A model generated the notes under the pieces. The model was not told the origin of the DNA. It was given only the letters and a program-made list of their open reading frames with translations, and did not search any database. Below are positions 29,021 through 37,875 of a stretch of DNA of 64,000 nt, piece by piece; the first letter of the stretch is position 1; every line of letters starts with the position of its first letter. This stretch comes from Candidatus Nanopelagicales bacterium (GTDB taxonomy: Bacteria > Actinomycetota > Actinomycetes > S36-B12): contig WLWL01000002.1 of the NCBI GenBank assembly GCA_012103605.1, forward strand, positions 7,507-71,506, written 5' to 3'. The translations under genes and the position numbers were made by a program.

Positions 29021-30709
29021 ATGCCAGACATCAAACCCCGCAGTCGCCAGGTAACCGATGGGCTCGAACGGGCTGCAGCCCGTGGCATGTTGCGTGCGGT
29101 CGGTATGGGCGATGAAGACTTCGCCAAGCCGCAGGTGGCCATCGCATCGAGCTGGAATGAAATTACGCCCTGCAACCTGTCGCTGGAGCGACTGGCGACA
29201 TCAGCCAAGGAGGGCGTCCACGCCGCCGGTGGCTACCCATTGGAATTCGGAACCATCTCGGTCTCCGACGGCATCTCTATGGGGCATGAGGGCATGCATT
29301 TCTCGCTGGTCAGTCGCGAGATCATCGCGGACTCGGTCGAGGCGGTTGTCGAAGCGGAAAGGCTCGACGGCATGGTCACGTTCGCCGGCTGCGATAAGTC
29401 GCTGCCGGGCATGCTGATGGCGTCGGCTCGGCTCGACGTGTCGTCGGTGTTCGTGTATGCCGGCTCCATCCTTCCCGGCCACGTGAAACTGAGCGACGGT
29501 ACGGAGAAGGACGTCACCATCATCGACGCATTCGAAGCCGTGGGTGCGTGCGCGCGAGGCTTGATGTCTCGAGAAGACGTCGATCGAATCGAGCGAGCCA
29601 TTTGTCCTGGTGAAGGTGCCTGCGGCGGCATGTACACCGCTAACACGATGGCGAGTGCCGCCGAAGCGATGGGAATGTCGCTGCCCGGGTCAGCCGCTCC
29701 GCCTGCCGTCGATCGCCGTAGAGACACGTACGCACGCAAGAGTGGTGAGGCCGTGGTCGAGTTGCTCCGCCTCGGCATCACCGCGCGCGACATCATCACG
29801 CGGCAATCTCTGGAGAACGCCATCGCGGTGATCATGGCCTTCGGTGGCTCGACCAATGCGGTTCTGCATCTGTTGGCGATCGCCCATGAAGCCAAGGTCG
29901 ACCTGCACATCGAAGACTTCCACCGCATCGGCTCGAAGGTGCCGCTGCTCGCGGACGTCAAGCCCTTCGGTCGGTACGTGATGAGCGATGTGGATCGTGT
30001 GGGCGGCGTTCCGGTGGTGATGCGCGGCCTGCTCGATGCGGGTCTGCTGCACGGCGACTGCCTCACCGTCACGGGCAAGACGGTTGCCGAGAATCTGGCA
30101 GACATTGATCCGCCGGATCCGGACGGAACGATTCTGAAAGCGTCGAACGATGCGATCGCTCCGACAGGCGGCATCACGATCCTGTCGGGCTCGCTGGCTC
30201 CCGAGGGTGCGGTCGTGAAGAACGCGGGGGTAGCGGTGGAGGTGTTCGAGGGAACCGCGAGGGTATTCGAGCGTGAGCAGGCAGCCATGGATGCGCTCGA
30301 GGACGGCACCATTCAGGCTGGTGACGTCGTCGTTATTCGATACGAAGGCCCCAAGGGTGGTCCAGGTATGCGCGAGATGCTGATGATCACTGGAGCCATC
30401 AAGGGTGCGGGCTTGGGTAAGGACGTGCTATTGATCACCGATGGGCGCTTCTCTGGTGGCACGACGGGTTTGTGTGTCGGTCACGTCTCCCCAGAGGCTG
30501 TCGACGGTGGCCCCATCGGGCTGCTGCGTGACGGTGATCGCATCATGATCGATATCCCGAACAGGAAGCTCGACGTTCTCGTTGATCCGGCAGAGTTTGA
30601 CGCCCGGCGCGAAGCATTCACTCCCCTCCCGCCTCGGTACGAGCGCGGAGTTCTCGCCAAATACGCCAAGCTGGTGGCCAGTGCGTCGAACGGTGCGGTG
30701 ACCGGATAG
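29021..30709 (+). CDS. ilvD: dihydroxy-acid dehydratase (canonical copy)
   Basis: [54 protein letters not shown] lies 6 nt upstream of the ATG (leaderless). Confidence 0.95.
30272..30595 (+). repeat. near-identical tract shared with 37438-37761 (ilvD paralogues)
   Basis: By-eye alignment gives about 18 mismatches in 324 nt, only one changing an amino acid. Confidence 0.85.
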
Positions 30710-30768
30710 TTCCTGCACGATCGGGAAGGTCGACGTCCATCCACCGCACAACCACAGAAGGAATCGGA

Positions 30769-31611
30769 ATGAAGCTTGCGAGAATCGGGGCGCGGGGTAG
30801 CGAAGTACCGGCGGTCCTCGGTCGGGACGGGGTTTATCGAGACGTGTCGAGTGTGGTGTCTGATTTCACGCCCGAATTCTTCGCCGGTGACGGCATCGAG
30901 CGCTTGCGATCGAGTGATCTATCCGGGCTCTCGGCGGTGAAGGGCCGGATCGGTGCGCCGATCGCCAAGCCGAGCCTGATCTTGTGTGTCGGCCTGAACT
31001 ACGTCGATCACGCGAACGAGTCGAGCATGAAGGTCCCTGAGGAACCGATTCTGTTTACCAAGGCACCCAACTGCCTGGTCGGGCCGTATGACGATGTTCT
31101 AACTCCCCGTGGAGCCACCACGGTCGACTACGAAGTGGAATTGGCGGTGGTGATCGGACGCCGATGTCGATACCTCGACTCGCCTGAGCAGGCAATGGAC
31201 CACCTCGCTGGTTTCACTATCGCGAACGACGTGTCCGAACGAACGTTCCAGCTCGAGCGCGGTGGCGGTCAGTGGATCAAGGGCAAGTCCTGCGAGACCT
31301 TCAACCCGTGCGGCCCGTATCTGGCGACCACCGACGAGGTCGATCTCGACGGTGGACTCGACCTGTGGCTCGACGTGAACGGGGAACGGCGCCAGACAGG
31401 ATCGACTCACGACATGATCTTCGACATCGCGACGGTCATCCATCACGTCAGTCAGTTCATGGTGCTCGAACCGGGCGATGTGGTGAACACGGGGACTCCA
31501 CCCGGGGTTGCGATGGGAATGGCCGAACCGGGCTATCTGTCTCCCGGAGACGTGATGACGCTGGGAATCACCGGCCTGGGTGAACAGCGTCAGGAAGTTG
31601 CGTCGGCGTAG
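30769..31611 (+). CDS. fumarylacetoacetate hydrolase (FAH) family protein
   Basis: CVGLNYVDH, DYEVELAVVIG, ANDVSER, GKSCETFNP, TGTPPGV. Confidence 0.92.
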   Translation: MKLARIGARGSEVPAVLGRDGVYRDVSSVVSDFTPEFFAGDGIERLRSSDLSGLSAVKGRIGAPIAKPSLILCVGLNYVDHANESSMKVPEEPILFTKAPNCLVGPYDDVLTPRGATTVDYEVELAVVIGRRCRYLDSPEQAMDHLAGFTIANDVSERTFQLERGGGQWIKGKSCETFNPCGPYLATTDEVDLDGGLDLWLDVNGERRQTGSTHDMIFDIATVIHHVSQFMVLEPGDVVNTGTPPGVAMGMAEPGYLSPGDVMTLGITGLGEQRQEVASA

Positions 31612-36109: not shown

Positions 36110-36177
36110 GTGGACGTTCCTACCCTTTCCTCGCTGATGGCAGTGCCCCCGATGATGTCCCTTCCTAGACTACGAGC

Positions 36178-37875
36178 ATGACCTCTCCCGTGCGTATGAA
36201 ACCCCGCAGCTTTCTGGTGACCGACGGACCCGACCGAGCACCGAACCGGGGAATGCTACGTGCTCTGGGCATGGACGACGACGACTTCACCAAGCCTCAG
36301 ATCGGAATCGCCAACAGCTATAACCGCATCACACCCTGCAATATGTCGTTGCGCGATGTTGCCGTGTCGGTTGCGCAAGGTGTCGAAGCCGGGGGTGGCT
36401 TCCCGATGGAGTTCGGGACGATCACGGTGTCGGACGTGATCTCGATGGGCCATGAGGGGATGCACTTCTCGCTTGTGAGTCGAGAGGTGATCGCAGATTC
36501 GGTAGAAACCGTCGTCCAGGCCGAACGTCTCGATGGGATGGTCACGCTGGCGGGATGCGATAAGTCCATTCCGGCCATGATGATGGCGGCCGGCCGACTC
36601 GATATCGCATCCGTGCTCTTATACGCGGGCTCGCTACTTCCCGGATACGTGCGTCTGACCGACGGCACCGAAGAGACCGTCAACATCGTGACAGCTTTCG
36701 AGGCTGTCGGTGCTCGCGCGCGCGGCTTGATGAACGATGAAGACGTCGATCGAATCGAGCGAGCGGTATGTCCGAGCGCGGGCACGTGCGGTGGCATGTA
36801 CACCGCCAACACGATGGCAAGTGCGGCCGAAGCGATGGGCCTGGCACTTCCTGGTTCATCCTCACCCCCCGCGGTCGATTCGCGACGGGACACCTTGGCG
36901 CGGCGCAGCGGTGAAGCGGTTATCGAGATGTTGCGACAAGACATCACGGCACGAGACATCATCACCAAGCAGTCCCTGGAGAACGCGATAGCCATCGTGA
37001 TGGCACTCGGTGGTTCGACGAATGCTGTCCTGCACCTTCCAGCGATCGCGCACGAAGTCGGGGTTGATTTGGGAATGGACGATTTCCACCGGATCGGAGC
37101 CCGCGTGCCGCACGTTGCGGATCTCAAGCCCTTCGGTGAGTACCTGATGTTCGACCTCGACAAGGTCGGGGGTGTTCCCGTTGTGCTGAAGGCTCTCTTG
37201 GAAGTGGGCTTGCTGCACGGTGATTGTCTGACGGTGACCGGCCGGACGATGGCCGAGAACCTCGCGGACATTGAGATCCCCGAACCTGACGGCACCGTCG
37301 TTCGACCGATCTCGTCACCGCTCGGGTCTACCGGGGGGATCACCATTCTCGGCGGCTCGCTGGCTCCCGAGGGTGCGGTCGTGAAGAACGCGGGTGTTCC
37401 CGTGGAGGTTTTTGAGGGGGTGGCGCGTGTGTTCGATCGTGAGCAGGCAGCCATGGATGCGCTCGAGGACGGCACCATCCAGGCTGGTGACGTTGTCGTC
37501 ATTCGATATGAAGGCCCCAAGGGTGGTCCGGGTATGCGCGAGATGTTGATGATCACTGGAGCTATCAAGGGTGCGGGCTTGGGTAAGGACGTGCTGTTGA
37601 TCACCGATGGGCGCTTCTCCGGTGGCACGACGGGTTTGTGTGTCGGTCACGTCTCCCCGGAGGCCGTCGACGGTGGCCCCATCGGGCTGCTGCGTGATGG
37701 TGACCGCATCATGATCGATATCCCCAACAGGACGCTCGATGTGCTCGTCGATCCGGCAGAGATGAGCGAACGCCACGCGTCGTTCGAACCGTTACCTCCG
37801 CGCTATAACCGAGGCGTGCTCGCGAAGTACGCCAAGTTGGTGGGTAGCGCCTCGAAGGGAGCCATCACGGGGTAA
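36178..37875 (+). CDS. ilvD: dihydroxy-acid dehydratase paralogue (divergent second copy)
   Basis: Retains the PCN, GCDKS and [10 protein letters not shown] Cys ligands and [14 protein letters not shown] lies 6 nt upstream of the ATG. Confidence 0.9.
37438..37761 (+). repeat. near-identical tract shared with 30272-30595
   Basis: Same alignment, offset 7166 nt. Confidence 0.85.

Follow-up and report, generated by a model that had tools for sequence, protein, structure and literature searches.

How might an actinobacterium that appears able to oxidise the branched sugar D-apiose deal with the D-apionate that this oxidation yields? The question is raised by a stretch of 64,000 nucleotides (the window) from Candidatus Nanopelagicales bacterium (GenBank assembly GCA_012103605.1, contig WLWL01000002.1, positions 7,507 to 71,506 of the forward strand), in which genes for an ApsD-like dehydrogenase, an ApnL-like lactonase, a short-chain dehydrogenase/reductase (SDR), a hydrolase of the fumarylacetoacetate hydrolase (FAH) family and a rhodanese form an island between two copies of ilvD, the gene for dihydroxy-acid dehydratase (DHAD). 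Four bacterial apiose routes have been described, and the three oxidative ones all run through ApnO, an enzyme with a fold and mechanism like those of ketol-acid reductoisomerase (KARI), according to the available part of PMC13753588; they use ApsD, ApnL and ApnO and then OiaK/OiaX/OiaT/OiaC (Carter et al. 2018, as summarised in that part), and the word 'dehydratase' is absent from the text. The genes at issue, whose families were assigned with Pfam and NCBIfam profiles, are the following.

29021-30709, plus strand: IlvD1, housekeeping dihydroxy-acid dehydratase, occupying the ancestral slot behind gatA, gatB and a 2-hydroxyacid dehydrogenase gene (TIGR00110)
30272-30558, plus strand: gene-conversion tract in IlvD1, with its partner tract in IlvD2 at 37438-37724 (287 nt at 95.5% identity)
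30769-31611, plus strand: FAH, putative beta-diketo-acid (acylpyruvate-type) hydrolase (PF01557)
31590-32411, minus strand: SDR oxidoreductase that closes the minus-strand operon, presumptive role only (adh_short)
32422-34230, minus strand: ApnL-like protein of 602 aa, putative D-apionolactonase (NF049900)
34227-35255, minus strand: ApsD-like Gfo/Idh/MocA (GFO) dehydrogenase, putative D-apiose 1-dehydrogenase (PDB 5uhw, Rhizobium homologue)
35252-36109, minus strand: two-domain rhodanese of the 3-mercaptopyruvate sulfurtransferase (MST) type, first gene of the operon (PF00581 in two stretches)
36110-36177, no strand: divergent intergenic region of 68 bp
36178-37875, plus strand: IlvD2, diverged DHAD paralogue, candidate D-apionate dehydratase (TIGR00110)

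The junctions between rhodanese and GFO and between GFO and ApnL, read directly, both consist of a GTGA overlap; the ApnL and SDR genes are 10 nt apart, IlvD1 and FAH are separated by 59 bp, rhodanese and IlvD2 by 68 bp, and FAH and SDR share 22 bp at their 3' ends. Re-reading of the open reading frames and junctions agrees with a description made earlier from the letters alone (the sequence-only reading) in its genes, coordinates, two GTGA overlaps and 68-bp divergent gap.

These genes could specify an ApnO-independent, non-phosphorylative oxidative route for D-apiose, all of whose substrates and products, and the order of whose steps three to five, are those that we infer. D-apionate is the bis-hydroxymethyl analogue of 2,3-dihydroxyisovalerate. 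In the proposed route the ApsD-like GFO dehydrogenase would turn D-apiose into D-apionolactone, which the ApnL-like enzyme would open to D-apionate; IlvD2, a duplicated DHAD whose N-terminal (cofactor and lid) domain has been remodelled, would then remove the tertiary C3 hydroxyl of apionate to give 4-hydroxy-3-(hydroxymethyl)-2-oxobutanoate, the SDR would oxidise a hydroxymethyl group of this product to a 2,4-dicarbonyl, and the FAH hydrolase would split the dicarbonyl into formate and 4-hydroxy-2-oxobutanoate, or an equivalent pair. The full route through dehydratase, SDR and FAH hydrolase is offered as a serious possibility that stops just short of probable.

From apiose to apionate, and the known routes onward

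The GFO dehydrogenase is, judged by sequence, a member of the rhizobial ApsD subfamily. No curated hidden Markov model for ApsD was found, and the window protein has its closest relatives in the GFO genes that belong to canonical apiose clusters. Over 337 aa it shares 44% identity with the Gfo/Idh/MocA protein of Rhizobium sp. TAL182, the gene for which overlaps a true ApnL gene (1057 bits on NF049900) in a cluster that also holds OiaX, a DUF1537-type kinase, a gene in the ApnO position and an ABC transporter. Its best match among Protein Data Bank (PDB) entries is 5uhw, at 336 bits (3e-99) against 84 bits for the runner-up, and 5uhw itself matches the TAL182 protein at 631 bits and about 80% identity. 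From recall and from this similarity to the Rhizobium protein we take 5uhw to be an ApsD, the depositors' title being merely 'oxidoreductase protein'. The 4-nt overlap of the ApsD and ApnL genes is likewise seen in the Rhizobium and Shinella clusters. As to further dehydrogenases, unassigned dehydrogenase/reductase genes next to apionolactonase genes are raised in the available part of PMC13753588 as maybe a new kind of apiose dehydrogenase.

The 602-aa protein, whose gene is joined to the ApsD-type gene by one of the GTGA overlaps, is a full-length homologue of ApnL and a putative D-apionolactonase. It has no Pfam domain and no sequence relative in the PDB; its sole NCBIfam match is NF049900, where it misses the equivalog cut-off (244 bits versus 750), and it is 28-30% identical to rhizobial ApnL with 93-96% of the query covered. 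The missed cut-off is uninformative because six homologues that adjoin OiaX, OiaK or ApnO genes in Chloroflexota, Planctomycetota, Bacteroidota and other groups also score 278-346 bits; the cut-off sorts out proteobacterial sequences rather than function. Two further ApnL-like members of the island's family reach 291 and 333 bits. Forty-two columns are invariant among 10 sequences that include two true ApnLs, and 46 across 20 homologues. The predicted structure (pLDDT 89.6, pTM 0.91) has a TIM barrel between two beta-sandwiches, and a fold search with it returned glycosidase-like architectures alone (TM 0.25-0.42), GH97, GH36 and GH79 being loosely alike, and yielded no functional assignment. 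The names 'ApsD-like' and 'ApnL-like' given in the sequence-only reading were thus well chosen: the first is borne out by the Rhizobium gene and by 5uhw, the second by a full-length homologue that scores as do ApnLs beside ApnO, OiaK or OiaX elsewhere. Family membership and gene context together make the conversion of apiose through apionolactone to apionate likely.

The source is a metagenome-assembled genome (MAG) of 2.23 Mb in 295 contigs, 93.7% complete and 8.55% contaminated, coded G000 among the genomes compared. A Rhizobium ApnO query found no match in it, and in five island-bearing relatives (92-98% complete) ApnO was not found either, the only matches being N-terminal ones of 19-26 bits, all in G021, one of which lies in ilvC. 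As a positive control, the same query recovers ApnO in 17 loci of other phyla, where identities are 39-53%. In none of the six island-bearing genomes did NF042436 find OiaK; the non-oxidative transketolase route was not searched for. The sequence-only reading had seen no ApnO or RuBisCO-like route in the window, and the search of whole genomes that it suggested extends this to ApnO and OiaK in all six. The absence of ApnO routes from these genomes is accordingly a supported reading of the searches.

The sole RuBisCO-like match of the source genome lies on contig C225 and scores 80 bits with NF042437. It was considered as an Oia enzyme and rejected, since the models that fit it best are of the MtnW type and its neighbours are mtnA and an aldolase/SDR fusion. 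The cluster (C225, locus L006, 1896-6042) comprises the RuBisCO-like protein, an mtnA-type isomerase, a bifunctional aldolase/SDR that exceeds the cut-off of a RhaD-type equivalog, and a GntR regulator, and looks like one of methionine-salvage or 5-deoxy-sugar type.

IlvD2 and its tie to the island

An ApnL-like gene was found in 20 of the family's other 36 genomes, 13 of the 19 in the genus among them, and in none of 24 genomes from the order's other families; depositors have labelled close relatives Micrococcales, Nanopelagicales or Actinomycetota alone. Maps were made with tblastn, dropping matches below 50% of query length for ApnL loci and islands, below 40% for single-copy ilvD loci and below 25% for the ilvBNC context. 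The gene order is not due to chance because it recurs in nine longer and four short loci of relatives and also in loci L054-L058: FAH, the divergent SDR-ApnL-ApsD-rhodanese operon and IlvD2 form an island conserved in several genera. The relatives' layout reads gatAB-2HADH-IlvD1-FAH, then SDR-ApnL-GFO-rhodanese on the opposite strand, then IlvD2-ilvB-ilvN-ilvC (2HADH being the 2-hydroxyacid dehydrogenase gene), and is complete in G005, G012, G021 and L058 and complete but for FAH in G033. In the source genome IlvD2 is followed by an unassigned ORF and DnaE, and ilvBNC is on contig C244; in G007 and G004 IlvD2 is likewise followed by this ORF and DnaE, and in G006 by DnaE. In these four genomes IlvD2 remained with the island. 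Island-less genomes (G002, G023, G025, G032) read gatAB-(2HADH)-ilvD-ilvBNC, and the ilvD genes of 11 single-copy loci (L040-L050) are all of IlvD1 type (82-91% identical to IlvD1, 72-77% to IlvD2), these genes lying in the same gatAB context and these loci having no match to FAH, the island or IlvD2. It follows that the whole island, FAH and IlvD2 included, was inserted into an ilvD-ilvBNC locus. Two genomes, G004 and G019, have no ApnL match, and in both IlvD2 adjoins a fragment of a rhodanese gene where the contig ends.

The two IlvD proteins are 77% identical. IlvD2 matches the DHAD of M. tuberculosis (PDB 6ovt) at 877 bits and retains the ITPCN, CDK, CGGM and DGRFSGG motifs, that is, three cysteines, the CDK motif and the serine base, the roles of which are taken from the available parts of PMC5770437 and PMC9543379. 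In equivalog score and motifs IlvD2 is thus like an ordinary IlvD, and it is unlike one in forming a separate clade on a long stem and in ten replaced residues, on both of which counts it fails orthology with the housekeeping enzyme. The clade has 100/100 support, and an SH-aLRT of 100 after 28 class-level DHADs were added (an odd copy from G034 being left out of that tree); its stem amounts to about 0.5 changes per site, and the trees leave the attachment point of this stem unplaced, duplication and transfer both being compatible with them. A search for a donor in 121 genomes of the class, a sample that includes seven unpublished ones (G065, G073, G082, G088, G090, G094, G101), found no DHAD besides IlvD2 itself that is more than 73% identical to the IlvD2 N-terminal domain, and the best 120 database matches to IlvD2 are all at least 80% identical to it and hence hold no outgroup. 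IlvD2 was seen with the island alone, in one family.

Residue sets of IlvD2 and of housekeeping enzymes are disjoint at 35 alignment positions, all within IlvD1 positions 3-322. Ten signature replacements have one invariant residue in nine of nine IlvD2 sequences (E16D, V27L, R57D, S80T, G84V, F144L, D169T, I194V, E198A and A200T), where another residue is common to 47 of 47 housekeeping DHADs, except for 46 of 47 at E16 (the 47 omit an unpublished row, with which they number 48). The ten positions would fall in or near the N-terminal recognition helix, the magnesium ligand (SDG to SDV), the helix-loop-helix lid and the loop before the third Fe-S cysteine, a mapping anchored on the motifs and on how CcXyDHT is described in the available part of PMC5770437. 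Omega, calculated pairwise, lies at about 0.01-0.10 among IlvD1 sequences and 0.04-0.12 among those of IlvD2, rough values given that dS is saturated, and dN of IlvD2 is roughly 1.5-fold higher than that of IlvD1. Taken together, these comparisons mark IlvD2 as a distinct paralogue under purifying selection and tied to the island. The 68-bp spacer contains a conserved CCTAGACTACGAG box just 5' of the IlvD2 ATG in an alignment of seven genomes, which may be a -10-like element of a leaderless transcript; a scan with the sigma-70 consensus gave no promoter-like sites, and terminator-like sites were at chance level. That IlvD2 is a D-apionate dehydratase is a tentative assignment, which we rate slightly below an even chance.

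Is IlvD2 tied to the island by function, or by position? It could be a second DHAD of branched-chain amino acid synthesis left behind by the insertion, the island taking apiose no further than apionate; ilvD would then have arrived by duplication or single-crossover insertion, and apionate would be handled by unrecognised enzymes, for instance with the SDR acting first. Much of the genomic context speaks for this explanation and so weighs against a catabolic IlvD2. The two ilvD genes are direct repeats on both sides of the island, and since recombination between them would delete the island together with one copy, their co-occurrence with it is no proof of shared function. IlvD2 lies directly upstream of ilvB (and of ilvN and ilvC where the contig reaches) in G005, G012, G021, G033, G034, L058 and G177, and this slot before ilvBNC, which IlvD2 holds in most relatives, is the ancestral ilvD position. 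On the ilvD equivalog TIGR00110 (cut-off 618) IlvD2 does no worse than IlvD1, both scoring 729 bits, and it keeps all the catalytic motifs. Gene conversion between the copies evidently continues: the tract of 287 nt contrasts with 69.5% identity over the other 1402 aligned nt, and comparable C-terminal tracts are seen in G012, L058 and G005 and not clearly in G006 and G021, which suggests repeated independent conversion.

Gene content points the same way at several loci. G027 keeps rhodanese, GFO, ApnL and SDR without IlvD2 or a close FAH, and G033 and G034 have no adjacent FAH. In a survey of 74 ApnL loci outside the lineage (E <= 1e-15, at least 50% coverage, many contigs short), IlvD stands beside ApnL in none, FAH in one, and ApnO, OiaK or OiaX in 21, where the ApnL homologues are 30-38% identical; in other phyla there are also clusters of ApsD, ApnL and SDR genes with no IlvD match. 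The co-occurrence of ilvD, SDR and FAH around ApnL genes, which the sequence-only reading had proposed surveying, therefore stood in its own lineage and, as regards IlvD, failed outside it. The link between IlvD and the island is limited to one lineage and amounts to a single origin.

The record of copy number bears on the other side. Among 13 island genomes at least 90% complete (the source genome included, and G025, with a distant 33% homologue, excluded), 12 have at least two IlvD matches, G027 has the IlvD1 type alone, and none has IlvD2 alone. No island-less family genome of the same completeness (n=8) has two full IlvD copies, G029 having two non-overlapping pieces, and a second copy is found in none of the order's other 24 genomes. 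In G177 the IlvD1 slot upstream of FAH holds a long DHAD of the E. coli type (NF009103, 1136 bits; 42% identical to IlvD1) and an IlvD2-type gene, with nine of the ten signature residues, is kept between the rhodanese gene and ilvB; the slot looks like an in-place displacement by a foreign DHAD. The displacement site is covered by L057 4737-6542 and L164 621-2309, where the contig ends within the gene and the upstream flank is unseen. That IlvD2 was never the sole DHAD in genomes at least 90% complete, and that the G177 slot was refilled by a foreign enzyme rather than left to IlvD2, argues that IlvD2 is no substitute for the biosynthetic enzyme. A redundant direct repeat would moreover be expected to be lost, yet IlvD2 is kept across genera under purifying selection, has ten fixed replacements at class-invariant positions and takes its promoter region from the divergent spacer that it shares with the operon. 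Linkage by position alone is therefore judged unlikely, though by no means negligible.

SDR, FAH hydrolase and rhodanese

Route III pentose pathways and the L-rhamnose and L-fucose diketo-hydrolase pathways employ an SDR-type 4-dehydrogenase and an FAH-superfamily hydrolase (available parts of PMC6336799 and PMC12994016). The island presents the same series of classes, namely an aldose 1-dehydrogenase, a lactonase, an ILVD/EDD-type dehydratase, an SDR and an FAH-superfamily C-C hydrolase. Its substrate would, however, be branched, so that the dehydratase would remove a tertiary hydroxyl and the SDR oxidise a primary alcohol, and its dehydrogenase is of GFO type, its lactonase of ApnL type and its dehydratase of the DHAD clade rather than a pentonate dehydratase. 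The FAH protein falls below the cut-off of NF053535 (332 versus 500 bits); its best PDB match is 8gsr, an L-2,4-diketo-3-deoxyrhamnonate hydrolase, at 248 bits (runner-up 170), which on sequence evidence fits a beta-diketo-acid hydrolase and the logic of Route III. Names of FAH-family entries in the PDB also include beta-keto-acid decarboxylases.

The SDR scores 216 bits with NF005559, a glucose 1-dehydrogenase subfamily (cut-off 215), and its best PDB match is 5u9p, a 'gluconate 5-dehydrogenase' (189 bits). Several observations on these two enzymes count against the proposed steps four and five. Among the best 60 of 117 PDB matches to the SDR, none is named a 2-keto-3-deoxy-acid 4-dehydrogenase; SDRs 42-47% identical follow ApsD and ApnL in one Abditibacteriaceae and two Anaeromyxobacter loci that have no IlvD or FAH match; and the FAH homologues of G033 and G034, 59-60% identical, are located in other sugar-acid clusters. 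The idea that FAH co-occurs with IlvD2 there in unlinked form was rejected, those clusters having a lactonase and an IlvD/EDD dehydratase of their own. The sequence-only reading had both enzymes act as in the diketo-hydrolase pathways; this is made plausible for FAH by 8gsr, its nearest solved relative, and not for the SDR, which is not close to known 4-dehydrogenases.

Clusters in other phyla show ApnL-like genes in further settings. In the Abditibacteriaceae MAG (L075, 8877-17167), after ApsD, ApnL and SDR come genes for a GHMP kinase, a cyclase-family protein (PF04199), a fusion of ribulose-phosphate epimerase (RPE) and 2HADH, and a zinc-dependent alcohol dehydrogenase (Zn-ADH), and this cluster may be another undescribed apionate route; the Anaeromyxobacter loci L083 and L098 have a similar ApsD-ApnL-SDR order. 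In an uncultured Opitutus MAG (L095, 226-9953), genes for an RraA-like aldolase, a GH140 apiosidase (PF13204 and DUF5060), a PanE/ApbA-like 2-oxoacid reductase, a Zn-ADH, an FAH 44% identical to that of the window and an ApnL-like protein run in the same direction; the 14.6-kb contig has no match to ApnO, OiaK, OiaX or IlvD and looks like another ApnO-less apiose cluster. That such an FAH stands there beside ApnL and an apiosidase is a point in favour of the proposed route.

The resemblance to Route III also allows that the sugar is a different one, a linear pentose or 6-deoxyhexose, with the specificities of GFO and ApnL shifted and IlvD2 a promiscuous sugar-acid dehydratase. The five enzyme classes equal those of Route III in the available part of PMC6336799. 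The nearest structure to FAH is that of an L-rhamnose-pathway hydrolase, and the lactonase is both distant from rhizobial ApnL and under its NCBIfam cut-off. DHADs accept some sugar acids. Equally distant ApnL homologues nevertheless adjoin ApnO, OiaK or OiaX in the 21 loci of the survey, the GFO protein is far nearer to 5uhw than to other solved GFO enzymes, and classical IlvD/EDD sugar-acid dehydratases for routes of that kind already exist in the family (G033, contig C13), yet the island took a true DHAD-type enzyme. On this balance another sugar is improbable.

A further explanation starts from the position of the island between ilvD and ilvBNC: apionate or a derivative, being similar to dihydroxyisovalerate, may act as an inhibitor of the adjacent housekeeping DHAD and KARI or be wrongly processed by them, with IlvD2 as an insensitive or detoxifying isozyme, or else IlvC may act in the manner of ApnO with FAH as decarboxylase or hydrolase. 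The KARI-like character of ApnO in fold and mechanism (available part of PMC13753588), the weak match of the Rhizobium ApnO query to the IlvC N-terminus in G021 and the beta-keto-acid decarboxylases within the FAH family would accord with it. No duplicate of ilvC was seen in the source genome, however, and inhibition has to be assumed in addition; this explanation is very improbable.

The rhodanese scores 99 bits with NF008557 (cut-off 250) and its best PDB matches are MSTs, including 3olh. It has a CGSGVT loop, an instance of CG[ST]GVT, which we take to be the MST-type active-site motif. Its gene lies nearest the promoter in all the island copies seen and is coupled by overlap to the sugar dehydrogenase gene, and a rhodanese stands beside ApnL in none of the 74 loci outside the lineage. 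As a guess, it might feed sulfur to the Fe-S cluster of IlvD2.

For the proposed apiose route as a whole, then, the continuation by dehydratase, SDR and FAH hydrolase is chemically sensible and plausible, supported by a distinct and selected IlvD2 clade, yet it reflects one evolutionary event. What the sequence-only reading put forward is favoured by the ApsD and ApnL families, by ApnO and OiaK being unfound, by the relative of FAH and by the conserved IlvD2, and disfavoured by the kinship of the SDR and by a link confined to a single lineage.

Surroundings of the island and its place among apiose pathways

Annotation covered the main ORFs of 9858-43912, with 44000-64000 outside its scope. The genes on both sides of the island are as follows.

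22597-24783, plus strand: ligA
25008-26594, plus strand: gatA
26591-28111, plus strand: gatB
28104-28997, plus strand: 2-hydroxyacid dehydrogenase (2HADH)
38053-38742, minus strand: unassigned ORF, no Pfam match
39141-42668, plus strand: DnaE, a DnaE-type polymerase of 1175 aa
42635-43912, plus strand: DinB-like protein (DinB/IMS-family polymerase)

The DnaE gene overlaps the downstream DinB/IMS gene by 34 nt, and the ORF at 21561-22604 has no Pfam match either. The GC content is about 62-63%, falling to 0.58-0.60 across 40001-46000. Two results count further against an apiose pathway here: no transporter or regulator was found among the scanned ORFs, as the sequence-only reading had already remarked (two of them lacking a Pfam match), and the apiosidase families PF13204 and PF16586 have no match in the source genome. 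Contigs from RNA libraries of four runs or studies (seawater, salt marsh and marsh) are 95-99% alike to most of 28000-38500, and one of 2782 nt reaches from GFO to IlvD2; they are evidence of presence alone, not of transcription or of any ranking of the genes, DNA carry-over being possible.

With the three oxidative apiose routes the island shares an ApsD-type GFO dehydrogenase, an ApnL-type lactonase and the 4-nt overlap of their genes, as in the Rhizobium and Shinella clusters. It differs in having no adjacent ABC transporter, in the six genomes without ApnO or OiaK and in a RuBisCO-like protein that lies elsewhere, and instead has IlvD2, SDR, FAH and rhodanese. It is a fair possibility, put forward a little more tentatively than the dehydratase assignment itself, that this is a fifth D-apiose route and the first via dehydration instead of oxidoisomerisation by ApnO or a transketolase step, its D-apionate dehydratase having arisen from a DHAD duplicated in its own biosynthetic locus, with the N-terminal domain remodelled, the C-terminal part shared by conversion and the rhodanese as a fixed partner, in abundant small-genome actinobacteria of salt marshes and coasts that scavenge free apiose released by others.

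Apiose is a widespread branched plant sugar, and a route through dehydratase, SDR and FAH hydrolase would, if true, be a chemically different solution at the branch point. An 'ilvD' paralogue that is annotated automatically as biosynthetic would gain a function, and the study of enzyme evolution a clear example of a new enzyme that arose beside its parent gene. It would also suggest that streamlined aquatic actinobacteria use plant-derived apiose.

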